DNA of 20,749 nucleotides from a virus (IMGVR_UViG_2671180890_000003); one strand, 5' to 3'; numbered from the stretch's first letter, positions 1,583 to 20,749 are shown. Notes: generated by a model not told the origin, from the sequence alone. Made by a program: numbers and translations.

Positions 1583-1960
1583 TTAGACGTGCTTGGAGAA
1601 CAGGTAGCGTGCCATCACTAAAACAATGCCAAAGACTTCAGCGAGGGTTCCCCCCATAAATAGGTTTATAACGAAATCACTAAAATGGAGCAGTTTTGCT
1701 CCAATAAGGACAAAAATCCCATTCATAACTAATAGCTGGCCTATCAGAATGCCGATAAACCACCGAGCAAACATTTTTTTCAGTTTTGTGTCTGTTTTTA
1801 AATCTTTTGTTTTTGCACGCTGATGGGCTTTGGCTGGATCCTCATCATTTAGATGTGTGAGGGTTTTTGCTGATGGTGATGAGCCAGAGGCTGGTTCACC
1901 TCTGGCTTGTCTTGCCGCTTGCTTTAGTTTTTCAGATATAGCGTAAGATCTAGACGTCAT
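1583..1960 (-). CDS. Small membrane protein (125 aa): hydrophilic charged N-terminal ~60 aa then two predicted transmembrane helices
   Basis: Track ORF. Start lies 3 nt after the stop of the upstream peptidase gene (translational coupling). Hydrophobic stretches WFIGILIGQLLVMNGIFVLIGAKLL and FVINLFMGGTLAEVFGIVLVMARYL. Confidence 0.55.
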   Translation of the reverse strand: MTSRSYAISEKLKQAARQARGEPASGSSPSAKTLTHLNDEDPAKAHQRAKTKDLKTDTKLKKMFARWFIGILIGQLLVMNGIFVLIGAKLLHFSDFVINLFMGGTLAEVFGIVLVMARYLFSKHV

Positions 1961-1963
1961 TAC

Positions 1964-2446
1964 TCATCGAAGCCCTAAATTCTTTAGGCGATAACGTATA
2001 GCATCATCGGATACACCAAAATAGGAAGCCATCATTACTGGTGCATATCCTGCATTGTTGAGGCGTCGAACCTCTTTTTCTGGCATGAGAAGACATGCTG
2101 CAAAGTTATTGGCGAATATTTCTTCGCTGTCTACACCTTGGCTTGCCAGTTTTCCGCGGTAATCAACAAACTCATATTCAAGTGGCTGACCGTTCTCAGT
2201 TCGTTTGACGTAATGCCCTAACTCATGCGCACACGTAAATCGTTTGCGCACGTTACTATCATTACGATTGAGTATGATTACTGGATCTTGTTCTGGCTCT
2301 TTCAGCAATGCGCCTGAAACATCATCATCAAGCGTGGTTTCAACAACATCCAACCCTAACTCATTGGCAATCCATACTGGATCAACCGGGAATTTCCTAT
2401 CGCCCCAGATATCTTTCAAGAGGGCATGTGCAGATGTATTCGACAT
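1964..2446 (-). CDS. ImmA/IrrE-family (DUF955-like) Zn-metallopeptidase, no fused HTH domain (160 aa from ATG 2446)
   Basis: HEXXH motif in RKRFTCAHELGHYV. ATG at 2446 is preceded by AAGGAGG at the right spacing; the track ORF begins 2 codons earlier at a GTG (2452). Confidence 0.7.
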   Translation of the reverse strand: MSNTSAHALLKDIWGDRKFPVDPVWIANELGLDVVETTLDDDVSGALLKEPEQDPVIILNRNDSNVRKRFTCAHELGHYVKRTENGQPLEYEFVDYRGKLASQGVDSEEIFANNFAACLLMPEKEVRRLNNAGYAPVMMASYFGVSDDAIRYRLKNLGLR

Positions 2447-2627
2447 GTTCACCTCCTTTGATTATGGTTAAATAGTCGAAATTTTCACCACTTCCCTTGT
2501 GGATATATTTACATATAAAAGGTAACTAGTCACTAACCAACACAAATCTTTTTGAAGACAGATGGGGGGTGTTGAACGGTTTTTAAATGATTTCTTTGAT
2601 TTTTAACAGCAATAAGGAGCATTTTTA

Positions 2628-3280: not shown

Positions 3281-3384
3281 GTAACGGCCCCATCAACTGG
3301 GAGCGGATTTGAGCCCCGAATGTGTAGGCAATGTCACTTAACGTTTGTCGCATACCTTCCAGAAAAAGCGATTCATGAATAATA

Positions 3385-3420
3385 GGGGCATGAATGCCCG
3401 GCGTACCGGGCTTATTAGTT
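3385..3420. terminator. Two overlapping GC-rich hairpins (GGGCAT/ATGCCC and GCCCGG/CCGGGC) with T-rich flanks; candidate intrinsic terminator just downstream of the lipoprotein gene
   Basis: Hairpins at 3386-3399 and 3396-3411. T-rich TTATTAGTT follows on the plus strand and CTATTATT on the minus strand; the T-tract is imperfect. Confidence 0.35.
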
Positions 3421-4117
3421 AATTTGGTGCTTTAGGGTCAACATTAAAAGTTATATCACCTTCTGTATTTTTCCCGGCATAGCTAGCGGCTATTCTCGCC
3501 AACCCTTTGTAATCAGCAATTCCATCAGACTGTTGCGAGACGACTGAGCTACCAACTTTCCATAACATATTAATCTGCCGATTATTGAGATAAGCCTTGG
3601 CATCAAACGACTGGAGTATCACCCCTGCGCCGTAGAACGTGTCCGTCACAGTTGTGTTATACGCGCCAGTAATTCCATAAGTAGGCGTATAAACTGTTGT
3701 TGCCGTTCCAGTGGTATTAGCTGTACCGTAGCCACCACCATAACTATTGAACGTGGTGTTCGAGTTTCCGTACGTTGTTGCTGAGCTCACACCAGTTTGC
3801 CCGTATATTGGGATGGTTACATTACGAGTATTTGAAATGGCCCCGCTTCTCAAAAAGTTCAAGAGAATTACCTGGTCAGCCAATTTTTCATCTTTAACTT
3901 GTGTATATCCTTGGCTTGATAAACTGGCGGCTACTACCGTAGCTATTTGAGTGTATTCAATCTGTTTGGTGTTCCAAAGTTCTTGGCTTGCGGGGATGAT
4001 CAAGAACTTCTTACCGACAGATTGCCCGGAAGATAAAGCATTGACCGTTACTAACGGTTTTTGTACGCATCCAGCCAATAATGACAGGGATAATATTAAA
4101 AGAAGATTTTTAATCAT
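3419..4117 (-). CDS. Lipoprotein (232 aa) with Gly/Thr/Tyr/Asn-rich central low-complexity region
   Basis: Signal peptide with lipobox LLAGC (MIKNLLLILSLSLLAGC). AGGTGAG SD upstream of ATG 4117. Possible own sigma70-like promoter (TTACAT...TAATTT) in the 150-bp gap upstream. Lower GC than the upstream module. Confidence 0.7.
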   Translation of the reverse strand: MIKNLLLILSLSLLAGCVQKPLVTVNALSSGQSVGKKFLIIPASQELWNTKQIEYTQIATVVAASLSSQGYTQVKDEKLADQVILLNFLRSGAISNTRNVTIPIYGQTGVSSATTYGNSNTTFNSYGGGYGTANTTGTATTVYTPTYGITGAYNTTVTDTFYGAGVILQSFDAKAYLNNRQINMLWKVGSSVVSQQSDGIADYKGLARIAASYAGKNTEGDITFNVDPKAPN

Positions 4118-4267
4118 GATAATCTCACCTAAGAATTGCGTGGTTATAAATTATCATCACTGTAAGCGAATGTAAGCCACAGGCTCGTAATGTGATATGG
4201 AATTTTGATAGTTGGCTCAATATCAGTATGCCGTCCTTGGCTATTATGGTTTTGTTAGTTAGAGCGT

Positions 4268-6988
4268 CTATTCCCATTCGCTAACATCTTTCATGCCACT
4301 GAGGGTAGCTACAATCCCGGCCCTTGTCAGTTTCACGAATTCTTCAGCCCCAACGGCATCACGAATTGCTTTCATGGCAATTTTATTGGCCGAAAATCGT
4401 TTCTCTGCTGCGGCGATCGCTGCTGGTGATGCCCCTGCGCGCACTGCTTTTGTAGCTTCCTGAACGGCTTTCTCTATCGCATATCGACCACTTCTTGTCG
4501 CCCCAATCTTAGCCACAGCATTTCTTAGCGCGCCACCAGCAACCAAACCACTAATCGAACCAATTACACCACCGCCAAAGCCTCCAGCGATCGCACCTGA
4601 CTGTTGAACACCGTTCATAATCACGCCGACGATCTTTGGAAGGCCTGAATCGAGCGTTTTGAGAGCCTCAGTTGTTCTTCCCGTGCGCTCTACGTATCGC
4701 TGCGGTCTGGTACTGGCTTTAGCGAGTACACCGAACTCTTTCATCATTCTACCGAGATCTGGCGCATGACGACTGATGGCGTTTACATTCTGCTGGGTCA
4801 TGAGCTTGGCAAAATACTGGATACCTGACTCTTCACCGATTCCTCCCTTCTCTCCCTGCGCCACAGCATGCTGAAGAATAGATGCTATTGCAGGTTGGCG
4901 TTCTGCTTCCGGCAGCGCGGAGATAAGACGGTGAAAAGCTCCCGTTCCAGTGTTTGCGGATGCCTTAAGCGTATCGGCACCTTTTCTTACCATAGCGTCT
5001 GATGCGAGATCTCGACCAAAAACAGATTCGGCATTTTGTTTGGCGATAATGTAACTTTTAGAGAGATCGTTAGCTTTCTGCCATTCTGTGAGGAAGTTTC
5101 CTTTTTCAGCCATGATGCGCATGTCATCAGTGATAGCTCTGCGCATTTCTCCGGCAATCCGGGCGGCATTGGCCTTACCTGCCCGGGTGTTTGCTTGTTC
5201 AGCATCAGCAAACTTAGCACGCCATGCCTTCATCCCGTCGAAGGTTATGCCGCCACCTTGGTTGTTGGCAGCCTGAAACTGTTTCATCTCCGGGCTGAGT
5301 GGAACATTGGCTGCTTTTTCTGCTTGGACGACAGCCATTCCATTACTCATTTTCATCCTTTCGCGTGGCATCGTGCTTCGCAGTTCTGCCCATGCCATAT
5401 TCTCTGCTGTTTTCATATCACTGAGGCTCGCGATGATGCGCTCTTTAATTGCTGCGCTTTTTTCTGATGCGCTTCCAGACTCAGCACCGAAATCAGACAA
5501 CTGCTTATTCAACTTTGAGGATATTTCATTGAAGGCCGTAAGGTGAGCATCCTGAACATTCCCAGGAGTTGATGCCAGAACACCTTCTGCTTGGGCAATT
5601 CCACGACTACCTGAGCGCATTCCAGGCGTCAGGGTGTTGATATTAATACCAGTGATTTTCGCCGCCTTAGCGACATCATCTCTGACGTTTGATGCCTGCG
5701 ATGCGATATGCTCTCGGCCTACGGCAGAACGCGCTGCTTTCGATACATCATTGGCGGTTTCCAGAGTATTTGCTGCCCCTAACACATGGCCTGATTGATT
5801 TGTATTACTCCGCAATACATCTCGCATTACGTCACTGGCTGTCTGTCCGCTCTTTATTAAAGCGCGTGCTCCTAGCGATCCTGCTAGGCCAATACCTGTC
5901 TCTTTTGCTAGGTCTTCTGGGCTGATCTGCCCGTTCTTTTGGGCGTTCACCAATGTACCTGGCAGGTTTTCTGCCAACATACTAGCCACCTTTGTGGCCG
6001 CACGTTCAGCACGTGGAGCGTTGGCAACTGAAGAAGCTGCGGTAGCTGCCTTTCCTGCACCTAATCCTGTAATAAGGTAAGGTGCTAGCTGCTCACCAGC
6101 CTGCGCGTATGGATCTGTAGGTTGGTCTACTGGGCGAAAGACTGGTGATATGGGCGTGTATGTGCCATCACCCACACCAAGCTTCTGAGCTGCCCATGCT
6201 CCGGCTGATTGCGCCGCATTGACTACCCCCACGCCTGCGTCCATTACATCAAACGGTATATTAGCAATCCCTCTGGCCATCTGCTCTGGCGCAGCTTTCA
6301 GTCCTGGCGAAAGATATTCCATCTCAGGATTAAGGTTAGACTTGGCTACTTGCTGCTGCGGTTCCCCGGCATTTTCATCGGCGAGAAACTGAGCTCTTTT
6401 CTGCTCCCATGAACTGGCTGTTGGTAGTCCTGCTTCTATGTTCTTAAATTGCTGACGTTTTGCTTCCCATGCAGAAATATCTCCCACCTGAGAGATTTCT
6501 TTATCAAGCTCTGAGTAGTCAGGCTGCTGAAGATTGCGATGTTGACTGGTTTGTGCAAACTGCAAGATTTCACTGTCATCAGGGATTATTCCGGCATCTG
6601 CAAATTTACTTACGTAATTAGCCGTTTCATCTGGCAGTGTAGATTTACCGTTTCTGACGGCATTAATACGAGCATAGCCAGAATTATACCCAGCCAATGC
6701 CATACCTATATCACCAAATCGCTTCATTCCTTTATTGAGATGGTTTGCTGCGATATCCATTTGCTTTTCAAATGGCAGTGAGCGCGGATCTGTTCCACGA
6801 TAACCAGCATCACTCATTACTGAGGGCATCAGTTGAGCAAATCCTCTAGCTCCTTTCGGTGACTCGGCACTTCCGTTACCACTAGATTCATTGCCAACTA
6901 ATGTTTCCATCGTCCCTGATGGGAAACCATATTTTTCATCGAGATGACGGGAATAGGCTTTCTGTTTTTCTGTCAGTTGTGCCATCAT
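4268..6988 (-). CDS. Large virion-type protein with N-terminal SLT lytic transglycosylase domain (about 906 aa); internal-virion/ejection protein-like (T7 gp16-type architecture) or tape-measure-like
   Basis: SLT signature ES...GARGFAQLMP...AGYNSGYARI in the first ~150 aa. The remainder is Ala/Gln/Ser-rich and helical, with a Gly-rich hydrophobic C-terminus. ATG 6988 forms an ATGA overlap with the upstream stop; the track start is 6994. Confidence 0.8.
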   Translation of the reverse strand: MMAQLTEKQKAYSRHLDEKYGFPSGTMETLVGNESSGNGSAESPKGARGFAQLMPSVMSDAGYRGTDPRSLPFEKQMDIAANHLNKGMKRFGDIGMALAGYNSGYARINAVRNGKSTLPDETANYVSKFADAGIIPDDSEILQFAQTSQHRNLQQPDYSELDKEISQVGDISAWEAKRQQFKNIEAGLPTASSWEQKRAQFLADENAGEPQQQVAKSNLNPEMEYLSPGLKAAPEQMARGIANIPFDVMDAGVGVVNAAQSAGAWAAQKLGVGDGTYTPISPVFRPVDQPTDPYAQAGEQLAPYLITGLGAGKAATAASSVANAPRAERAATKVASMLAENLPGTLVNAQKNGQISPEDLAKETGIGLAGSLGARALIKSGQTASDVMRDVLRSNTNQSGHVLGAANTLETANDVSKAARSAVGREHIASQASNVRDDVAKAAKITGININTLTPGMRSGSRGIAQAEGVLASTPGNVQDAHLTAFNEISSKLNKQLSDFGAESGSASEKSAAIKERIIASLSDMKTAENMAWAELRSTMPRERMKMSNGMAVVQAEKAANVPLSPEMKQFQAANNQGGGITFDGMKAWRAKFADAEQANTRAGKANAARIAGEMRRAITDDMRIMAEKGNFLTEWQKANDLSKSYIIAKQNAESVFGRDLASDAMVRKGADTLKASANTGTGAFHRLISALPEAERQPAIASILQHAVAQGEKGGIGEESGIQYFAKLMTQQNVNAISRHAPDLGRMMKEFGVLAKASTRPQRYVERTGRTTEALKTLDSGLPKIVGVIMNGVQQSGAIAGGFGGGVIGSISGLVAGGALRNAVAKIGATRSGRYAIEKAVQEATKAVRAGASPAAIAAAEKRFSANKIAMKAIRDAVGAEEFVKLTRAGIVATLSGMKDVSEWE

Positions 6989-8304
6989 TGCCATCCCTTA
7001 AGTTTTGCCTGATAGTAACTTTCCGGCAGATAGCCATGTGCGGTCACATAATCCTTAACCAGTGAAGGATCCTGCAACAGCATTTTGGTATCAGTTTCTT
7101 CGTCCTTAGATTTGGTTACAGGAATACCGAGCCCGGCAATCTGTCGTTTCTGCATTCGAATAATTACGTCCTGCGCTTTATTCAACTCTCGCAAAAATGC
7201 CTCATTGCTGGTTGCTGACTTAATGCCATTTTGAGATTGCATAAGGGCAGCCCTTTCCCCTTCGGTTGGGTTAGAGCCAAAAGTCCCTTTGAGGCTAGGC
7301 AGAATAACCTTTAGGTTGTATTCATCAGCTTTGGCGCGTAGGCTTCGTGTGTCTTCTGCTACATCAGGAAGGAATCCAAACCCCAGCGTCAGGGGGTTAT
7401 AGTTCTGCGAGCGGGTAACGGCCGAAGGATGTTTCCCTACAATTCCCGCCAGTTCATGACCCACTTCAAGCGCAGAGTTCAAGGAGTCGATGTTACCTGC
7501 AACAGTATTAATTTTATCGTTCATCTTCTCCACTTTCGCCTGCTGTATCTTGCTCAGTTCAGCATTGAGCTTGTCTCTCTCGATGTCATTTTGAGCACGT
7601 CCAAGTCGTGCTTTCAGAACCATTTCTCTCGTGCGTAGTTGGTTATCGGATAGGACTTTGAACTGCTCCATATCGAGACGTCGATTACCCTGTTCCGCAT
7701 TAACCTGAGCATTATATGCGGATGTATCTGCGTTCTGCTGTGCAATGCTCTGCCCTTGCTGCTTCTCTTGAACACTAAAGTAACTATTTGGATCAGCATG
7801 GAGGTGGATGAGGTCAGTGATTCTGTTGAATTCCTGTGGGTCATTCTGCCAAGACTGATAAACCTCTTCAGCAGGAAGACCAAATCGCTGTAATACTGGA
7901 TTTGCCTGCTGAATGGCCTTCTGCATGGTCAGTGGATCTCCAGTTTGTGACGCAAGACGCAGATTCATGGCAGCGTCAGCGGTCTGTCGATTTTGCTCAG
8001 CATCAATGAATCCCATCTGTTTTTGAGAATCAGCCATAAACTGGGGATACTGGGCCATTAACTTCTGCACGCCAACACGATCATTATTAGCTACCGCACT
8101 ACCCAACCGTGCCTGATATTCTTTTAACTGCTGGGAAATTTGCGCCTGCTGATTAATCTCAGCAACGCCTCTTAGCCCCTGTAGCGCCATTAAACCTACG
8201 TTTGGCTGCTGCTGATACTGCACAGGCTGAGGAACGGAAGAACGAGGAGCATTATCATTTTGCGGTGCCATGCTAGGCAGCCCGCCAAGTTGCCATGTCG
8301 CCAT
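6985..8304 (-). CDS. Gln-rich coiled-coil protein (439 aa); putative virion internal protein (gp15-like position)
   Basis: Track ORF. Start overlaps the upstream stop by 1 nt (TAATG) and the stop overlaps the downstream start: a translationally coupled block. Confidence 0.7.
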   Translation of the reverse strand: MATWQLGGLPSMAPQNDNAPRSSVPQPVQYQQQPNVGLMALQGLRGVAEINQQAQISQQLKEYQARLGSAVANNDRVGVQKLMAQYPQFMADSQKQMGFIDAEQNRQTADAAMNLRLASQTGDPLTMQKAIQQANPVLQRFGLPAEEVYQSWQNDPQEFNRITDLIHLHADPNSYFSVQEKQQGQSIAQQNADTSAYNAQVNAEQGNRRLDMEQFKVLSDNQLRTREMVLKARLGRAQNDIERDKLNAELSKIQQAKVEKMNDKINTVAGNIDSLNSALEVGHELAGIVGKHPSAVTRSQNYNPLTLGFGFLPDVAEDTRSLRAKADEYNLKVILPSLKGTFGSNPTEGERAALMQSQNGIKSATSNEAFLRELNKAQDVIIRMQKRQIAGLGIPVTKSKDEETDTKMLLQDPSLVKDYVTAHGYLPESYYQAKLKGWQ

Positions 8305-8981
8305 TAGAATCCAAGCCCCCCAACAAGACCAATAAGCCCACCACCAATAGCCCCGGCGACATTACCTATACCCGGAACAACGGAACCAAGTTGCGCACCC
8401 GCTAAAGCGCCTGATGCCGCCCCACCAATACCACGCGCAAGACTGGATGGCTGCTGCGCCTGACCTGCACGAATAGCGCCAAGCCCCTGCAAGAGTTGCC
8501 CGGTATTATTGGCGTAGTTTTGCCCTGCTGTTGCCTGCCCTGATGCCGCATTCATCCCGACATTTAGCAGGTTTCCATAATTTTGCATTTGCCCACTGAG
8601 CCAATTGTTATAAAGCATGGGCGCAATGGAAGATAACTGGTTACTGGTAGCTGTTGAGCCAAGCCCCCCGGTAGCTTCTGCTGAGACAAGGTTCTGATAA
8701 CGGGCCTGATCTGCCTGTGTTTTATATAAACCAGAACCAAAGAAATCATTCGCGGCTTTATTCTGCCCTTCCAGAGTCATCAGCCCTTGCAGTTGTTGTA
8801 AAGCAGGCAATCCGACTTCTGCATACGGCTTGAGATTATTCATCACCGTATTCCACTGCTCGCGCTGCAAATCAATTGCCTGCTGCTGGGCCTTCGCCTG
8901 AGCTTTAGAGGCACCACCATCACCGCCTTTTTCGTATACGGCACGATTGAGATGTTTATGAGCTATATGGGTAATTAACAT
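8304..8981 (-). CDS. Gly/Gln-rich protein (225 aa) with hydrophobic Gly-rich C-terminus GGLIGLVGGLGF; putative membrane-inserting virion protein (gp14-like position)
   Basis: Track ORF, coupled to its neighbours; composition suggests membrane association. Confidence 0.65.
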   Translation of the reverse strand: MLITHIAHKHLNRAVYEKGGDGGASKAQAKAQQQAIDLQREQWNTVMNNLKPYAEVGLPALQQLQGLMTLEGQNKAANDFFGSGLYKTQADQARYQNLVSAEATGGLGSTATSNQLSSIAPMLYNNWLSGQMQNYGNLLNVGMNAASGQATAGQNYANNTGQLLQGLGAIRAGQAQQPSSLARGIGGAASGALAGAQLGSVVPGIGNVAGAIGGGLIGLVGGLGF

Positions 8982-9436
8982 TCGCTGAATTCCTTATATT
9001 GTTGCCGAGTTAACTGATAAAGCGTTACGCCGACGGGTTTACCACATCTGATATAAGCATCATCAAGGTGACCAACACGGGTAGCGCCAAGCAAACGGAT
9101 AATTGCCCGTCCGTATTTCGTGGTGTCAGGAACCATAGTGATGCTATTAAGGAATGGTGAGTTTTCGAGAAGCCATTTGCAGAATAATCGATGCCCTTGC
9201 AGTGCATATTCGCCACGGAATCCGGGGTCGTACACCGCATGGCATTCAACAACGCTATGCCAGAAGTTACGCACTTCATGAACGCCAGCCAGCACCAATC
9301 CTTCGTAGATGCCGAGATATACCGCATCAGGCTTGATGTAGTACGTGTGCCCCGGCTCAACAATATTTTCGGTATTGGCAGGCTCGTTAAGAAAGGCCTG
9401 TAATCGCACCGGGTTATCAATAAATTTTAGTTCCAT
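8975..9436 (-). CDS. Hypothetical protein (153 aa), first gene of the ejection-like block (gp13-like position)
   Basis: Track ORF with ATG start; overlaps the downstream gene by 7 nt. No family recognised. Confidence 0.6.
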   Translation of the reverse strand: MELKFIDNPVRLQAFLNEPANTENIVEPGHTYYIKPDAVYLGIYEGLVLAGVHEVRNFWHSVVECHAVYDPGFRGEYALQGHRLFCKWLLENSPFLNSITMVPDTTKYGRAIIRLLGATRVGHLDDAYIRCGKPVGVTLYQLTRQQYKEFSEC

Positions 9437-15494: not shown

Positions 15495-15685
15495 TTTTCA
15501 CCCCCAAGAATTACCAGCTCGGCACGGGCATCGTTAACCAAAGATGAGCACGCTTTAATCGCATCCACGACATCAGCAGCGTCCATTTCTTCAGCCGAAA
15601 GACTGACAGCAACCAGGACAGCCGCTGCTTGCTCGATTAATTGAAGTGCGGACGTAAGGCGAGGGGTATTAATTGAGTTATTCAT
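15491..15685 (-). CDS. Hypothetical small protein (64 aa from ATG 15685)
   Basis: Internal ATG with GGGGG SD and 8-nt overlap with the upstream stop; the track ORF extends to 15742. Confidence 0.4.
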   Translation of the reverse strand: MNNSINTPRLTSALQLIEQAAAVLVAVSLSAEEMDAADVVDAIKACSSLVNDARAELVILGGEK

Positions 15686-15896
15686 TGGTTGCCCCCGTTT
15701 TGCATGGCATTTCGCCACCTTCCAGCAGGAAATGAACGTCACGAACGGCGAGATCCAATATCGCGAGTAACGCCTTCAGTCTTTCGTCTCGTGAGGGAGA
15801 GTTGCTCACCAGAATGTCGTTAATCACTTCTGTCAGTGTGATGATCTGGCTTGTGCGTTCGAGGGGGTCCATATGCACATCGTAGGTTTTAATCAT
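15678..15896 (-). CDS. Hypothetical small protein (72 aa, MIKTYDVHMDPLERT...)
   Basis: ATG 15896 preceded by GGAGGTGG SD. It is the C-terminal part of the 355-aa track ORF, which I interpret as a run-on frame. Confidence 0.5.
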   Translation of the reverse strand: MIKTYDVHMDPLERTSQIITLTEVINDILVSNSPSRDERLKALLAILDLAVRDVHFLLEGGEMPCKTGATNE

Positions 15897-16083
15897 GTGC
15901 CACCTCCATGCGGATACGACCAGCAAAAAAGCAGACGTGATCGCGCACCAGAGAACGGCGAGCATCGCGTTCAGACTCGGCAGCAATATGATGAATTTTG
16001 GCGGTAATTGTCGGGCAATCGCGGCGAACTGCGGCGATAATCCAGATAAATTGCGGTTTTTGGGTAGGGGTAGTAGCCAGCAT
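15889..16083 (-). CDS. Hypothetical small protein (64 aa), first gene after the candidate promoter
   Basis: ATG 16083 preceded by AAGGAGG SD. The region is GC-rich with open frames on several strands, so coding status is uncertain. Confidence 0.35.
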   Translation of the reverse strand: MLATTPTQKPQFIWIIAAVRRDCPTITAKIHHIAAESERDARRSLVRDHVCFFAGRIRMEVAHD

Positions 16084-16231
16084 GTGGCAGCCTCCTTGTA
16101 CTGGGAATTCTTCCCACCACCGGAGCTGCGAAACTCGCTGGTGGTGGACTGAACAGAGTTCGCAGTACCGGCGTACAAGGAAACCGGCCAGCCTTTCGGC
16201 TGCCCTGTCCAGCCCACCATAATTTTGCAAG

Positions 16232-16270
16232 CGACGCGGATTATAACCACATCACTGAAAAAAGTGTGAG
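16232..16270 (-). promoter_or_regulatory. Candidate sigma70-type promoter for the small-gene/primase operon (perfect TATAAT -10, weak -35, T-rich upstream)
   Basis: Minus strand reads CTCACACTTTTTTCAGTGATGTGGTTATAAT immediately downstream of the 16286-16307 terminator. No strong -35. Confidence 0.25.
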
Positions 16271-16285
16271 TCTGGCTAACGGCAC

Positions 16286-16307
16286 AAAAAAAGACGCTCG
16301 GCGCGTC
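16286..16307 (-). terminator. Intrinsic terminator for minus-strand transcripts: GACGC-tcggc-GCGTC hairpin followed by T7
   Basis: Plus strand A7 at 16286-16292 then hairpin 16293-16307; the stem is only 5 bp. Separates the regulatory operon from the primase operon. Confidence 0.5.
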
Positions 16308-16310
16308 ATG

Positions 16311-16745
16311 TGTCGCCTCGTACATTTCCGGGCTGCGAAACCCGGCACCCGTTTTATGAGGTGCCTTATAACCATAAACCGTGTTGCCGCATAACGGCAA
16401 GCTCTTTTTTATGGACTCCGAAAACTCACTATTGGAAGAACCAGAAGCACAGTACATCGCGCTCATTTCGTTAACGTCACGCGCGTGGACGAATGTTTTT
16501 GTGGAGTCACTACACGAGCGGAAGACATCATCTACGACCAGAAATTTTCTGGCGCAGCCGCTGACCTTCTCAATGCTAATATCATCGCCCGAGATTTCTG
16601 GTATGGTTAAGGCATCCGTTCCGACCACCAGCAAATGATAAACTTTGCTTGTATCTGCTGTATTAATGCCTGACTTTGCCGTCATATTTCTGGATTTTGG
16701 CGACATGCCAGCCAGTGAAAATGTCTTCTTCTGGACGGGTATCAT
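16311..16745 (-). CDS. ORF of unknown function with a strong start but unresolved 3' end (possible frameshifted or fused gene)
   Basis: ATG 16745 has a GGAGG SD and an ATGA overlap with the upstream gene. The frame has no stop until 15678 and runs through a terminator hairpin and a promoter-like region; the end coordinate is nominal. Confidence 0.3.
16384..16417. repeat. Copy B of hairpin + T6 + ATGGACT element (TTGCCG-cataa-CGGCAA, T-run 16405-16410, ATGGACT 16411-16417)
   Basis: Shares the 14-mer TTTTTTATGGACTC with copy A. On the plus strand it resembles an intrinsic terminator; it lies inside the minus-strand ORF that starts at 16745. Confidence 0.5.
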
Positions 16746-16921
16746 TGGTTAACCTCCGCGAACTCCTTCATGAAACGCGCCAGCGGTTGTACGCATGGCG
16801 ATTGATACCCGTCGCGATAAAACCTCACTCGGTTGTGAGACACGCTTTCGACAGTAACGAGTGCTCCGTGGGCATCTTTGTAGCGTTTTTGTGGTTGTGG
16901 TGTTCCTGTTGGCTTAGACAT
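16742..16921 (-). CDS. Hypothetical small protein (59 aa from ATG 16921)
   Basis: GGAGG SD and 8-nt overlap with the antirepressor-like gene stop; the track ORF extends to 17008. Confidence 0.5.
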   Translation of the reverse strand: MSKPTGTPQPQKRYKDAHGALVTVESVSHNRVRFYRDGYQSPCVQPLARFMKEFAEVNQ

Positions 16922-17747
16922 TGAGCGCCTCCAGACGCTTGGCGAGCCAGCGTTGCGACAGGCGGGTGAGTTCTCCTTTGCGCTGCTCATATTCCATGCC
17001 CATATCAATTAACGTGATATTGGTGCTTTCGAGATATGAGAGGTGCTCAAGCTGTTCTGCGTTCATATGGTCGCGAGGTTCGCCAGAATAGCCATTTATC
17101 CGCGCCCACTGCTTAGCAGTTAGCCCTCCAAGAACGATACGAGAAATCATATTGCTCTCGTTTGTGTAGTGGTGTTGCTGCGTCGTTTTCCCCTGCTCGG
17201 CACGGGCCATATTCAGCGCATCGCACATTGGCTTAAAGTTGTTTGCGGCACTGATACGGGCTTTTAGCTGGCGACGATAGCGGGCGGCGATTTCAGGCAC
17301 GCTACGCTGTAATTCTTCCTCGCACTGGATGAAATAACGACGGATAGCGCGACCCTGATCATTGCGTTCGATCATTGCCAGTTCTTTCGCCATTCCGACA
17401 CTTAACAGATAGTCTTTGCCGGGTCTGCCAGACTGCTTAATCTTGCTGTAAGCCGCGCCATTCGGGCTTTTCCCCAAATTTGGGGAAATAGTTTTATGGA
17501 CTGAGTAATCGTGCCCAATGGTGAAGTCATATTCAGAGATGCGATCAGTGATCCATGTAGAGAAGTCTTTTCCCACGCCCAACGCTTTGTGTAACGCTTT
17601 TGCGCTAACAATATTGGTTTCACGCCCACCGATATGACCAGGAATAACCGGGACAATTGCGGCAAATTCATTACCGTTAATTGTGCTCAGAGAGGCGTTC
17701 AGATGAGGGGCGGCCTCAGAAATTAATCTGCTTTTTTCGATGTTCAT
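16914..17747 (-). CDS. Phage antirepressor-like regulatory protein (277 aa)
   Basis: GGAG SD upstream of ATG 17747. The N-terminal region (NGNEFAAIVPVIPGH...SAKALHKALGV) resembles Bro-N/KilA-N type antirepressor domains; from memory, not searched. Confidence 0.55.
   Translation of the reverse strand: MNIEKSRLISEAAPHLNASLSTINGNEFAAIVPVIPGHIGGRETNIVSAKALHKALGVGKDFSTWITDRISEYDFTIGHDYSVHKTISPNLGKSPNGAAYSKIKQSGRPGKDYLLSVGMAKELAMIERNDQGRAIRRYFIQCEEELQRSVPEIAARYRRQLKARISAANNFKPMCDALNMARAEQGKTTQQHHYTNESNMISRIVLGGLTAKQWARINGYSGEPRDHMNAEQLEHLSYLESTNITLIDMGMEYEQRKGELTRLSQRWLAKRLEALNV
17472..17502. repeat. Copy C of hairpin + T-run + ATGGACT element (CCCCAAATTTGGGG palindrome 17472-17485, TTTTATGGACT 17492-17502)
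   Basis: Read directly from the sequence. Lies inside the antirepressor-like coding region, in a different reading frame from copy B, so conservation is at the nucleotide level. Confidence 0.5.
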
Positions 17748-17759
17748 TTTCAGTCTCCG

Positions 17760-18191
17760 TTAAGCGGCGTTAAACGCGTCCGGGTAGAGTTTCAGAATGT
17801 CGGCAATTTCCTGCTGAGAAAGTCCGTTGTGATCATTTATGTTCGCAAGATGGTTAATATGAGTGATCACTTTCAGAACATCACCACGGCAGGAGAAACG
17901 GTAGCGAAGGTGTGTTCCGATACCATCAGGATTCTTTTCGTCGATACGCTCCAGAGTGATTCCAAGCTGGCGTTCTAACTCTGTTGCATAGTTACGACCA
18001 GAAGACAGACGGCAGTAGCGAAGAATGTCGTTTTCTGTCCATCCCTCTATACCAGTACGCAGCATATAGACTCGGGCACGATGCTTTTTCGGTGTGCGCT
18101 TTGGTGCTTGAAGGGATTTTGTAAGGGGCGTAATATCAGATACGCGAATATCTGAATTAGCCGCCTGTAATGGGCGGTTTTTCTTTTCCAT
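17760..18191 (-). CDS. Hypothetical basic protein (143 aa)
   Basis: Track ORF; start overlaps the AlpA-like stop by 1 nt. No family recognised. Confidence 0.55.
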   Translation of the reverse strand: MEKKNRPLQAANSDIRVSDITPLTKSLQAPKRTPKKHRARVYMLRTGIEGWTENDILRYCRLSSGRNYATELERQLGITLERIDEKNPDGIGTHLRYRFSCRGDVLKVITHINHLANINDHNGLSQQEIADILKLYPDAFNAA

Positions 18192-18409
18192 CAGGCCACC
18201 TTCCCGCGGCGTTCTGCCAGCCAGTTATTAATTTCCACCGCATCAAACGCAGTCACGTTATCTGTTAGCTTCACTGGGCGTGGAAGAGTGCCATTTTTAA
18301 CCCATCTATCAATAGTAGGCAGTGAAACACCTAGCAATTCCGGCATGCGAAAGCGACGGATGTATCCAGTTGTTGGGATAGCTGATGATGCTGGCTTGTG
18401 TGCTGTCAT
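18191..18409 (-). CDS. alpA: AlpA-family prophage transcriptional regulator / excisionase-like HTH protein
   Basis: RFRMPELLGVSLPTIDRWVKNGTLPRPVKL...WLAERR matches the AlpA pattern. ATG 18409 chosen for a plausible SD; the track ORF extends to 18478. Confidence 0.7.
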   Translation of the reverse strand: MTAHKPASSAIPTTGYIRRFRMPELLGVSLPTIDRWVKNGTLPRPVKLTDNVTAFDAVEINNWLAERRGKVA

Positions 18410-18514
18410 ATGTCCTGTAACTCCTGTGATAGCTGTTGAAGTTACGGTAATCATGTGAGCAGGGGGATTAGATGTCATCGCAACGAAAAATGGATTTTCG
18501 TTGCGAAATTATCT

Positions 18515-19396
18515 TTATGATTTAAAAGATTTGTTAGCTGATGAGAAATATTCATCCAGTAAGCGGGAGCTTAATTTTAAACCCCTATCCAGCATTTCTG
18601 CTTTGAGGGCTTCTTGTGTCCACCTTTTAGAAGTTGGTTCGGCTTTCTTTAAAGCGTTGAGCACCGCGCCAAGCAGTAAAAGGCTTTCATCGAGGTTCAG
18701 GAGACTGTTGTTATCACTGAGTGTTTTCTTTTCAAATTCTGCAATATTTTCTTTTCTGAATACGAACTCGACATTACCCAGCCCATCAGCAGGATAGAAA
18801 AAGGGATGATAACCATCGAGGCTAAAGTCAACAAACCTCTGTGATTCTTTGTCGTACAGTTTAGGTTTGCCATTTTCATCTGACTTGATGGCATATTCAT
18901 TGAACGCGTTCAGAATATTCACCAGACCAAATTCTGTTAAGAGGAAAGCACCTTCCATGTTGTGAAATTCACGGGGAACCTTGTCGCGTGAAAGGTCAAA
19001 CTCGTGCATAACATCTAAAGATTCAGCCCCAACCATCGGTAGATCGTATATGCCATGATTAATACGAAAAACATCACTGACTCTTTCTATATCTTCGTAT
19101 TCATAATCCAATTGTTCATTAGTATAGAATTCATCACCGGCAGGAGTTCTAATTACCGCACCTTCGTTAGTATTTTCAACAATCCACTTTTCAAAAACTC
19201 TTCGTTGCGAGTTTTTGATGACTTGAGCAGCGATAGCGTAACGGCCTTCGTCCAATATCGCTGAAATTGTAATGTGGCCTTCTACAGCCAATTGCAGGCA
19301 ATCGGCTACAGATACCCTTTCACCGAGTGTTGTGCTTAACCTGTTTGCGGTTTCCTCTATGGTCAACCAACTTTTGAACTGGAACAATTTGCTCAT
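18515..19396 (-). CDS. Hypothetical protein (293 aa), AT-rich cargo gene between integrase and AlpA
   Basis: Track ORF with ATG start and AAGG SD. Visibly lower GC than the flanking integrase and regulatory genes. No family recognised. Confidence 0.65.
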   Translation of the reverse strand: MSKLFQFKSWLTIEETANRLSTTLGERVSVADCLQLAVEGHITISAILDEGRYAIAAQVIKNSQRRVFEKWIVENTNEGAVIRTPAGDEFYTNEQLDYEYEDIERVSDVFRINHGIYDLPMVGAESLDVMHEFDLSRDKVPREFHNMEGAFLLTEFGLVNILNAFNEYAIKSDENGKPKLYDKESQRFVDFSLDGYHPFFYPADGLGNVEFVFRKENIAEFEKKTLSDNNSLLNLDESLLLLGAVLNALKKAEPTSKRWTQEALKAEMLDRGLKLSSRLLDEYFSSANKSFKS

Positions 19397-19489
19397 AGCG
19401 TAACCTTTCGCGCTGCCTTAAAGAGTGACCGGAACAGGCGGTAAGGCTTTCCGCTTTTCGCCCCGTCGGGCTAGTTCCGGTCTGTTCGG

Positions 19490-20749
19490 TTACTTTGCCT
19501 TTCTGATAGGCGTCACGTTGTAATCTTCGCCCTTCTCCAGAGCCACCAGCAAGCCCGCCCACTGTGTTAACGCAGCCCGGCGCTCGTCAAAGTATTGGTG
19601 ACGGTTATAGATACCCTCAACGCCTTTTATGCGGTGATTGAGGCATCTTTCAGCCACTACCGGATCAACGCCCAGCGCTGCTAAATGAGTACGTGCGGTG
19701 CGTCGGAAGTCGTGAATCGTGAAATTAGGCACATCCGGCATTTCGGCGCGAACCTTAGCCAGTGCTACGGGTAAAGTGCTTTCCTGAATATGTGGGATCA
19801 TTCTGTTTTGCATTTTCCTGGCTGGAAGCACCCATGCGCTATTACATGAAAAGGCGTGAAGCTCTCTCAACCATTCAACGGCTGGGGAAGGTAGAGGTAT
19901 ATCAATAGGGTCTCCGTTTTTGCTGCGTTCTTCCGGCAAATGCCATACCGCACCATCTAAATCAAACTCTTCCCATCGTGCGGCGCATAACTCCATCTTA
20001 CGAACGCATAGTGCCAGCAATAGCTTAAATGTCAGTTCGTTCTGGCGGCTGAATCCTTTTGCGGTGCGCATAGCCTCGAATAGCCTGATAAGCTCATCGC
20101 GAGTTAGCCAACGGTCGCGGGAAACCTCTTTACCACCAGCATCAGATACTTCAAACGCTGAACAAGGGTTTATCTCCAGAGCGTGGCGTTTTATTCCATA
20201 GTCAAAGATACGGCGTGTCCAGCGTAATACATCTGTTGCTATCGTTGGTGCTCCTCGGTCAACGATACCTTTCAACATGTCGTCAATGTGGCGTGGCTTA
20301 ACGTCCTCTACCTTCATATGCCCAATGCAGGGGTTAATATCCTTATCAATTCTCCGGCGAAGGATATCGGGATGTTTCCATCTCGGAAGTATCTGGCGCT
20401 CGAAGTATTCGGAGGCCAGATCTGAAACACGCATGGCGTTTTTCTCAGTCTCCATTTTTGCCAGTGCTTCAGCTTTTCGTTCCTGTTTCTCTGCTGCTAC
20501 GTCATAGCCAAGAGCAACTCTGGCTGACAGCTCTTTTGCTGTTTCTCTGGCTTTTGATAGTGACAGTTCGGAGTAAGAGCCTATAACCATAGCCCGCTGC
20601 TTTCCTGCGAGCTTATAGCGGAATCGCCAGAACGGGACTGTGTAGTTTTTGGGGTAGCAAATATAAAGGCCGTTGCCGTCTGCCTTGCCATCAAATCTGT
20701 CTCCCGCCTTTATCCATGCGCGGATCTGCATATCTGTGAGTTTTGGCAT
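19490..20749 (-). CDS. int: P4/CP4-57-family tyrosine integrase (419 aa)
   Basis: C-terminal catalytic motifs HDFRRTARTH (HxxR) and a conserved Tyr in GIYNRHQY; N-terminal region typical of P4-type integrases. The start codon is at the last base of the window. Confidence 0.9.
   Translation of the reverse strand: MPKLTDMQIRAWIKAGDRFDGKADGNGLYICYPKNYTVPFWRFRYKLAGKQRAMVIGSYSELSLSKARETAKELSARVALGYDVAAEKQERKAEALAKMETEKNAMRVSDLASEYFERQILPRWKHPDILRRRIDKDINPCIGHMKVEDVKPRHIDDMLKGIVDRGAPTIATDVLRWTRRIFDYGIKRHALEINPCSAFEVSDAGGKEVSRDRWLTRDELIRLFEAMRTAKGFSRQNELTFKLLLALCVRKMELCAARWEEFDLDGAVWHLPEERSKNGDPIDIPLPSPAVEWLRELHAFSCNSAWVLPARKMQNRMIPHIQESTLPVALAKVRAEMPDVPNFTIHDFRRTARTHLAALGVDPVVAERCLNHRIKGVEGIYNRHQYFDERRAALTQWAGLLVALEKGEDYNVTPIRKAK

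Follow-up and report, generated by a model that had tools for sequence, protein, structure and literature searches.

A large unnamed gene family kept between integrase and alpA in AlpA-type phage satellites, tentatively read as a regulator of alpA

Analysis of a viral contig of 20,749 nucleotides (IMGVR_UViG_2671180890_000003; this whole stretch is hereafter referred to as the window) identified three consecutive genes at one end, all on the minus strand, in the order of a tyrosine integrase gene (int) whose start codon sits at the window edge, an ORF that encodes a 293-aa protein here named X, and alpA (Table 1). A preliminary description of this sequence had noted an AT-rich gene between the integrase and an AlpA-like regulator, and the ORF and its composition were both confirmed, with a GC content of 0.407 for X, 0.498 for each of its two neighbours int and alpA, and 0.476 over the window. 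A putative Shine-Dalgarno sequence (AAAGG) lies 7 nt 5' of the X start codon and X is probably made together with the integrase. The spacer between int and X additionally contains a 9-nt inverted repeat (GACCGGAAC / GTTCCGGTC; window positions 19427-19435 and 19474-19482). X is a real gene and a chance ORF is ruled out, as full-length homologues were found from 93% down to 25% identity (E values of 4e-178 to 9e-9) and the protein has conserved motifs and a confident AlphaFold model. Searches of Pfam, PADLOC, PHROGs and NCBIfam gave no significant match to X, weak matches to TEBP_beta and HTH_62 falling below the cut-off, and the early remark that the protein shows no recognizable motif therefore holds for curated libraries.

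Table 1. Coordinates of the features discussed in the text, counted from the first nucleotide of the window.
Feature	Position	Strand	Remarks
Tyrosine integrase (int)	19490-20749	minus	419 aa; Pfam Arm-DNA-bind_3, Phage_int_M, Phage_integrase
int-X spacer	19397-19489	minus	93 nt; common to elements with the 281-aa and 321-aa slot alleles
X gene	18515-19396	minus	ATG-initiated ORF, 293 aa; member of a large unnamed family, after int and before alpA
N-terminal winged-helix-like domain of X	19253-19372	minus	about aa 9-48; most conserved part of the family; acidic
Central beta-rich acidic domain of X	18713-19243	minus	about aa 52-228; from the AlphaFold model and conservation
C-terminal three-helix basic domain of X	18518-18694	minus	about aa 235-293; HTH-like; variable across the family
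Perfect 12-nt inverted repeat, TCGCAACGAAAA-N5-TTTTCGTTGCGA	18478-18506		proposed operator of X
Candidate alpA promoter	18450-18478	minus	ATGACA, 17 nt, CATGAT; from a consensus scan, tentative; -35 abuts the repeat
Stem-loop CCGTAAC...GTTACAGG	18414-18447	minus	pairs the alpA Shine-Dalgarno sequence AGGAG (18421-18425)
alpA	18191-18409	minus	72 aa by the RefSeq start (WP_001363069); ORF reaches 18478; Pfam Phage_AlpA, HTH_17

Beyond these three genes, the window has coding sequences for a protein of 143 aa, the antirepressor AntA, a member of the Ash family and a primase with TOPRIM and DUF5906 domains, together with a late zone that comprises DUF2824, P22 gp7 (P22_gp7), a P22 injectosome translocase (Inj_translocase) and an ejection protein with an SLT domain; genes for an M78 peptidase and for PerC are also present. 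This gene content, with an inward-facing int, alpA, an antirepressor zone, a primase and captured helper genes and with structural and lysis genes short of a full set, is that used to recognize Gram-negative PICIs, elements of about 10-20 kb, and the zones follow one another as integration, Bro/antirepressor, replication and captured late genes, which is the general Gram-negative PICI layout (PMC10111431). Gene content and order thus support the assignment of the element as a phage satellite of the AlpA/PICI type, roughly 20 kb in length and EcCIMP1-like, and the term P4-like that had been applied to it was loosely right in that it named a satellite. A close relative of the element in E. coli strain CX21 lies between dinD and yicC with its int adjoining yicC, and the 3.85-kb end of this relative from int to antA is 99.9% identical to the window. 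The P22 ejection and injectosome homologues (DUF2824, gp7, Inj_translocase and a 908-aa SLT-domain protein) occupy window positions 4268-9436 on the minus strand, EcCIMP1 likewise carries homologues of P22-type ejection proteins, and these genes point to a P22-like helper phage.

Several other features of the element were recorded. The M78 (ImmA/IrrE-type) peptidase gene lies beside a 125-aa ORF without a family match (window 1583-2452, minus), and the PerC-family regulator (576-863) is close to the far end of the element. In PADLOC, the C-terminal half of AntA (window 16914-17747, minus) was matched to PDC-S22, a candidate defence family (E 1e-10). Two differences separate the window from the CX21 element, which is otherwise nearly identical: the Ash-family ORF, complete in the window (355 aa; 15678-16745, minus), is annotated in CX21 as a truncated pseudogene (L001:17211-17567), and the primase has 784 aa in the window while its gene in CX21 measures 2,757 nt.

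X was modelled by AlphaFold with a mean pLDDT of 87.7, and the model divides the protein into three parts. The complete protein is acidic, with a pI of 4.9 (family median 5.2), and its N-terminal domain carries a charge of -3.4 with a second helix that is hydrophobic and acidic, in comparison to a pI of 10.5 for AlpA. Two motifs are conserved in the central domain, G-[IV]-[YW]-DLPMIG-x-E-x-LD and YYPA-x-GL. The C-terminal domain has a pI of 9.2 and a turn-plus-helix signature (G-x-S-x-x-T-[LI]), is modelled at lower confidence (pLDDT 64-86), and gave weak but recurrent matches to HTH families, namely HTH_Tnp_Tc3_2 in 5/32 members, HTH_62, Arg_repressor and MerR. Remote homology searches and structure prediction had been proposed as a check on the gene, and they returned 2,210 relatives and the confident model described here, with no significant match in PDB or BFVD: Foldseek comparison of X with these two databases gave no match at E <= 0.001, and the beta-rich domain had no credible structural match in either. 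The sole PDB match by sequence profile was the T7 capsid protein (E 0.17), which was taken as chance, and the designed ankyrin proteins that matched the C-terminal profile were set aside as repeat artefacts. X was also considered as a paralogue of the neighbouring AlpA and this was rejected (hhalign E values of 0.16 for the N-terminal and 0.023 for the C-terminal part).

A first homologue search retrieved 54 clusters at 90% identity, all named hypothetical and nearly all from Enterobacterales. When the X profile was compared with 1.84 billion cluster representatives, 2,210 proteins were obtained at E <= 0.001 (1,527 at 1e-10; 396 at 1e-30), these being clusters defined at 50% identity, and X is therefore not the orphan it had been called. 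The names given to members in their sources were always hypothetical or uncharacterised, and no Pfam domain was found in 74 sampled distant relatives. A scan of species-representative genomes placed the family in Enterobacterales and Mannheimia (Pasteurellaceae), in Pseudomonas, Xanthomonas and Stenotrophomonas (Xanthomonadaceae) and Cellvibrio, in Shewanella, Colwellia and Pseudoalteromonas, in Desulfobulbaceae and SAR324, and among Betaproteobacteria in Rhodoferax, Variovorax, Polaromonas, Advenella and Nitrosomonas. The X gene also occurs on three IMG/VR contigs of 18-21 kb, about 1.3 kb from the contig end in the two where its position could be read.

Synteny was determined by calling ORFs in all fetched loci and searching them with profiles of X, the window's integrase and AlpA. 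An integrase gene was found no more than 500 nt upstream on the same strand in 32/42 distinct loci with enough upstream DNA, overlapping X in 3, while 6 more of the 42 had the integrase 0.8-5 kb upstream; in 41/48 loci with enough downstream DNA, an AlpA-like gene in the same orientation followed X at a distance of no more than 250 nt. The order of int, X and alpA is kept across Gamma-, Beta- and Deltaproteobacteria even at 25% identity (Neptunomonas), and the integration sites differ among loci (der in Enterobacter; yicC in E. coli and Yersinia). In the loci where int and X lie 0.8-5 kb apart, X still adjoins alpA and the gap is filled by cargo, so that the cargo hotspot beside the integrase in these islands is between int and X. 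One such gap (L039:1224-3992) holds an MmeI-type IIG restriction-modification enzyme (PADLOC, 1,234 bits), the corresponding gap of a close relative (L040:1011-3956) encodes a 981-aa protein with AAA, HSDR_N and cold-shock domains, and a third (L023:1553-3696) contains IS110 and IS630-type transposases. A Variovorax locus (L044) has a second X-like ORF (3359-3997; 212 aa, profile E 5e-8) directly upstream of a full X gene (4001-4819).

The low GC content of X had been taken as a sign of recent acquisition independent of the element's core. Our survey does not support this interpretation: the X-family gene was more AT-rich than the adjoining integrase in 35/36 loci, by a mean of 9.2 percentage points of GC and across backgrounds of 0.40-0.69 GC, and all four genes found in this slot in E. 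coli, X included, are AT-rich (0.376-0.425 GC in comparison to approximately 0.48-0.50 for int). Low GC is a standing trait of the X family and of the slot, and no sign of recent acquisition, and the order of int, X and alpA is itself conserved. The yfjH gene in the int-alpA slot of K-12 CP4-57 (L016:3145-4101) has a GC content of 0.368; YfjH, encoded between intA and alpA, was considered as a relative of X and rejected, being on the opposite strand and of no detectable similarity.

In E. coli the int-alpA slot holds either X or one of the unrelated genes for proteins of 216, 281 and 321 aa, giving at least four alternatives, whose flanks (int and alpA/antA) are 94-99% identical. Among 5,426 complete genomes, X was counted in 23, the 216-aa allele in 112, the 281-aa allele in 38 and the 321-aa allele in 77. 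Comparison of related elements, which had been suggested as a way of learning whether the slot is variable, consequently gave a divided answer, as the slot is indeed variable in E. coli while the position of X is conserved across Proteobacteria. Elements with the 281-aa and 321-aa alleles are homologous to the X element from int across the entire int-X spacer as far as the inside of the X start codon (19393), and again from within the first codons of alpA (approximately 18380); for the 216-aa allele, whose gene overlaps int by 4 nt, the exchanged cassette is 18446-19508. These breakpoints indicate that the coding sequence is swapped along with the DNA just upstream of alpA, and that the alleles have their upstream expression signals in common. 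The proteins of 281 and 321 aa resemble each other at both the N- and the C-terminus (E 2e-9), and the N-terminus of these alleles gave a weak profile-profile match to that of X (E 0.005 over 35 columns). The low-confidence model of the 281-aa protein (pLDDT 64) has the same N-terminal strand-helix-helix-strand order as X. These similarities are suggestive of kinship between X and other E. coli slot alleles and do not establish it.

The DNA that is exchanged together with the slot gene contains paired palindromes. In the window, the perfect inverted repeat begins 8 nt after the X stop codon and reads as two TCG-N3-CGA units. Alignment of loci from Enterobacterales and Mannheimia showed that a 30-nt block containing this repeat is near-invariant (19 invariant columns) between loci whose X proteins are 29-60% identical, while the remaining spacer between X and alpA is not conserved. 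The one variable position in the middle of each arm of the repeat changes without compensation, a pattern more to be expected of a protein-binding site than of an RNA stem. In other lineages, most of the loci listed have two short palindromes approximately 19-21 bp apart after the X stop codon, as read by eye and without a count, and these palindromes are lineage-specific (CCGAATTCGG, CCCAATTGGG, CCGCAATTGCGG, CCGCACTTGCGG, GGCAATTGCC, CCTAATTAGG, GGTTAACC and others). Among E. coli elements, the same AlpA protein (WP_001363069 or WP_001090781) was found, again by eye, with different slot genes and different downstream repeats, indicating that the repeats are tied to the slot gene and not to AlpA. 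Within the X family, similarity of the 70 nt downstream of the gene followed similarity of the C-terminal 65 aa of the protein (Spearman 0.50, permutation p 5e-4, 31 distinct loci), with a partial correlation of 0.42 when the other parts were controlled for; physical linkage of adjacent DNA may inflate these values and closely related Enterobacterales loci weigh heavily in them. The corresponding partial correlations with the downstream 70 nt were 0.05 for AlpA, 0.06 for the rest of X and 0.07 for Int. The half-site TCGCAACGAAAA showed no enrichment elsewhere in the window, in the CX21 locus or near the att-proximal end.

The right arm of the repeat abuts a conserved -35-like ATGAC(A/T), and GCGATGAC is conserved in the alignment; the accompanying -10 is weak and promoter-like sites in the region were no more numerous than in shuffled sequence, so that the alpA promoter given in Table 1 is a candidate. 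The 321-aa allele has a canonical terminator at the position of the repeat. Directly 5' of the alpA start codon, 37 distinct alpA leaders (among loci L003-L065) have the same stem-loop arrangement, built from sequences that are unrelated and covary, with a median z of -2.4 in comparison to shuffles (z < -2 in 21/37) and a mean of 7.4/12 nucleotides paired in the Shine-Dalgarno window. The recurrence of this structure suggests translational gating of AlpA.

The interpretation that we prefer, tentatively and at a little below an even chance, is that X is a DNA-binding regulator of alpA, and hence of induction and excision, which would make it a core protein of the satellite's integration and induction module and not cargo. 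This reading is derived from the position of the gene, the cassette structure of the slot, the repeats at the alpA promoter, which look cognate, and the C-terminal domain, which is basic and variable. What the analysis shows directly is the gene, its family and its conserved position, the conserved paired repeats and their covariation with the C-terminal domain, and from these we infer DNA binding by X, control of alpA, the sign of that control (activation or repression) and any sensing of the helper phage. The C-terminal HTH-like domain would bind the paired palindromes that follow the gene's own stop codon and adjoin the alpA promoter at its -35 edge, and binding would set the level of AlpA, the activator that would trigger excision and replication when the helper phage is active. 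The acidic N-terminal domain together with the beta-rich part may serve as an input or partner-binding module that contacts a helper-phage protein, Int or AlpA. AlpA is known as an activator, and helper-dependent expression starts the Gram-negative PICI cycle (PMC6092414, PMC11773190). Counting against this model, the HTH assignment derives from weak matches and a sequence pattern, and the repeats could instead be RNA hairpins or terminators. Additionally, EcCICFT073 and other classical PICIs have no gene between int and alpA and are nevertheless induced (PMC6092414), which means that a regulator of the X kind is not universal.

Alternatively, X may be an accessory of recombination, a directionality or architectural partner of Int and AlpA whose site of action would be the excision complex at att instead of the alpA promoter. 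The N-terminal domain as modelled has the winged-helix fold of excisionases and AlpA (4j2n, 8c3t, 8dgl, 1y6u), X is tightly contiguous with int to the point of overlap in 3 family loci, and the authors of the PICMI study propose an Int-Iolg-AlpA excision complex, with deletion of iolg abolishing excision (PMC10803314). We nevertheless judge this role to be improbable: the acidic charge of the N-terminal domain (-3.4) and its hydrophobic and acidic second helix are unlike DNA-binding excisionases, one integrase (94-97% nucleotide identity) pairs with four unrelated slot genes, the half-site shows no enrichment elsewhere in the element or near the att-proximal end, and X goes with alpA when int and X separate. 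A mainly structural role for the slot, as AT-rich DNA that nucleoid proteins would silence, for instance, or that would act as a spacer in front of alpA, with an X protein of little function, would account for the GC content of the slot alleles (0.376-0.425), for yfjH being AT-rich too and for X being AT-richer than int in all but one of 36 loci. It is very hard to reconcile with the strong conservation of the protein, in which residues stay invariant down to 25% identity across 2,210 clusters, with a fold predicted with confidence and with reading frames that are intact in nearly all loci, and we give it very little credence.

The preliminary description had favoured accessory or defence cargo, and X as a stand-alone anti-phage or abortive-infection gene in a variable hotspot beside the integrase is the remaining possibility. 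The finding that near-identical int and alpA/antA flanks hold unrelated genes in E. coli bore out the predicted variability of the slot and is what such a gene would lead one to expect; satellites do carry defence hotspots (int-psu in P4; prim-fis in PICMI; PMC10803314), EcCIMP1 confers an unexplained superinfection immunity without a known defence system (PMC11773190), and the central domain of X has no known fold. PADLOC, however, matched neither X nor any of three sampled distant relatives, and among the other slot alleles the sole match was a weak one of the 321-aa allele to PDC-S31 (E 0.002). X is almost always syntenic with int and alpA, even between very distant hosts, which sets it apart from mobile defence genes, recognisable defence genes sit beside X and do not replace it, and low GC is a property of the whole family. 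The actual cargo lies between int and X while X stays beside alpA, and we accordingly regard the defence reading as distinctly unlikely.

How the helper phage switches on alpA has been described as an open question both for Gram-negative PICIs (PMC6092414) and for PICMIs (PMC10803314). A wider form of the regulator reading, which we offer as a speculation with perhaps a modest chance of being right, is that the X family is the missing link by which infection with a helper phage leads to induction of alpA in many satellites of Gram-negative hosts and in islands of the AlpA type. X would then be a constitutive sensor-regulator, analogous and unrelated to SaPI Stl and possibly of a new fold, in which the conserved acidic module recognises a phage partner (or Int or AlpA) and the variable HTH binds its cognate palindrome pair, and the E. 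coli slot genes would be swappable sensor-operator cassettes that differ in helper specificity. The X family provides a concrete and widespread candidate for the alpA switch, with more than 2,000 clusters, no Pfam entry and a defined candidate DNA site. The analysis also corrects an error of annotation, in that an AT-rich gene of no known function adjacent to an integrase need not be recently acquired defence cargo. Our literature search found no description of the X family, its breadth, the paired palindromes or the regulator model beyond the notion of iolg/icg genes discussed below.

Among known systems, the excisionase/AlpA/TorI factors share with X the winged-helix fold predicted for its N-terminal domain, while AlpA-type factors are basic proteins of approximately 60-70 aa and X is an acidic protein of 293 aa (pI 4.9) that matched neither the Pfam Phage_AlpA and HTH_17 models nor the NCBIfam excise models. 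The Stl/Rpr master repressors of SaPIs and Gram-positive PICIs are int-adjacent, DNA-binding and highly polymorphic among islands that are otherwise alike, and contact with a helper-phage protein gates induction (PMC6092414). X is proposed to work in a comparable manner; no relation in sequence or fold was found between Stl/Rpr and X, and in contrast to Stl, which is divergent from the genes it represses and has an N-terminal HTH, X is co-directional with alpA and has its HTH-like domain at the C-terminus. The element as a whole closely resembles EcCIMP1, a 20-kb PICI of E. coli that the P22-like phage Kapi1 mobilises and whose genes 001 to 003 are int, a small gene of no known function and alpA (PMC11773190). 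Both have int, a slot gene, alpA, an antirepressor, a primase, DUF2824 and DNA-transfer proteins, PerC and a length of about 20 kb; they differ in that EcCIMP1_002 is a small protein once mis-annotated as UvrB and, as described, outside the X family, and in that EcCIMP1 is integrated at tRNA-Thr and the present element beside yicC.

The closest described class for X, judged by position, appears to be the iolg/icg genes of the PICMI satellites of Vibrionaceae. In PICMI115, iolg lies between int and alpA and is required for excision and transduction (PMC10803314). PICMI iolg genes, termed icg if merely contiguous, are thought to be constitutively expressed with int and fall into 13 unrelated slot families with no assigned function (PMC10803314). 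As with these genes, X is a single gene flanked by int and alpA and co-directional with them, it is contiguous with int (a 93-nt gap, with overlap in some family members), and its slot is filled by many unrelated families. The host of X differs, being a 20-kb EcCIMP1-like PICI in E. coli, and iolg has been described without the paired palindromes or their covariation with the C-terminal region of the protein. The deletion phenotype of PICMI iolg suggests, by analogy, a positive role for the gene in this slot.
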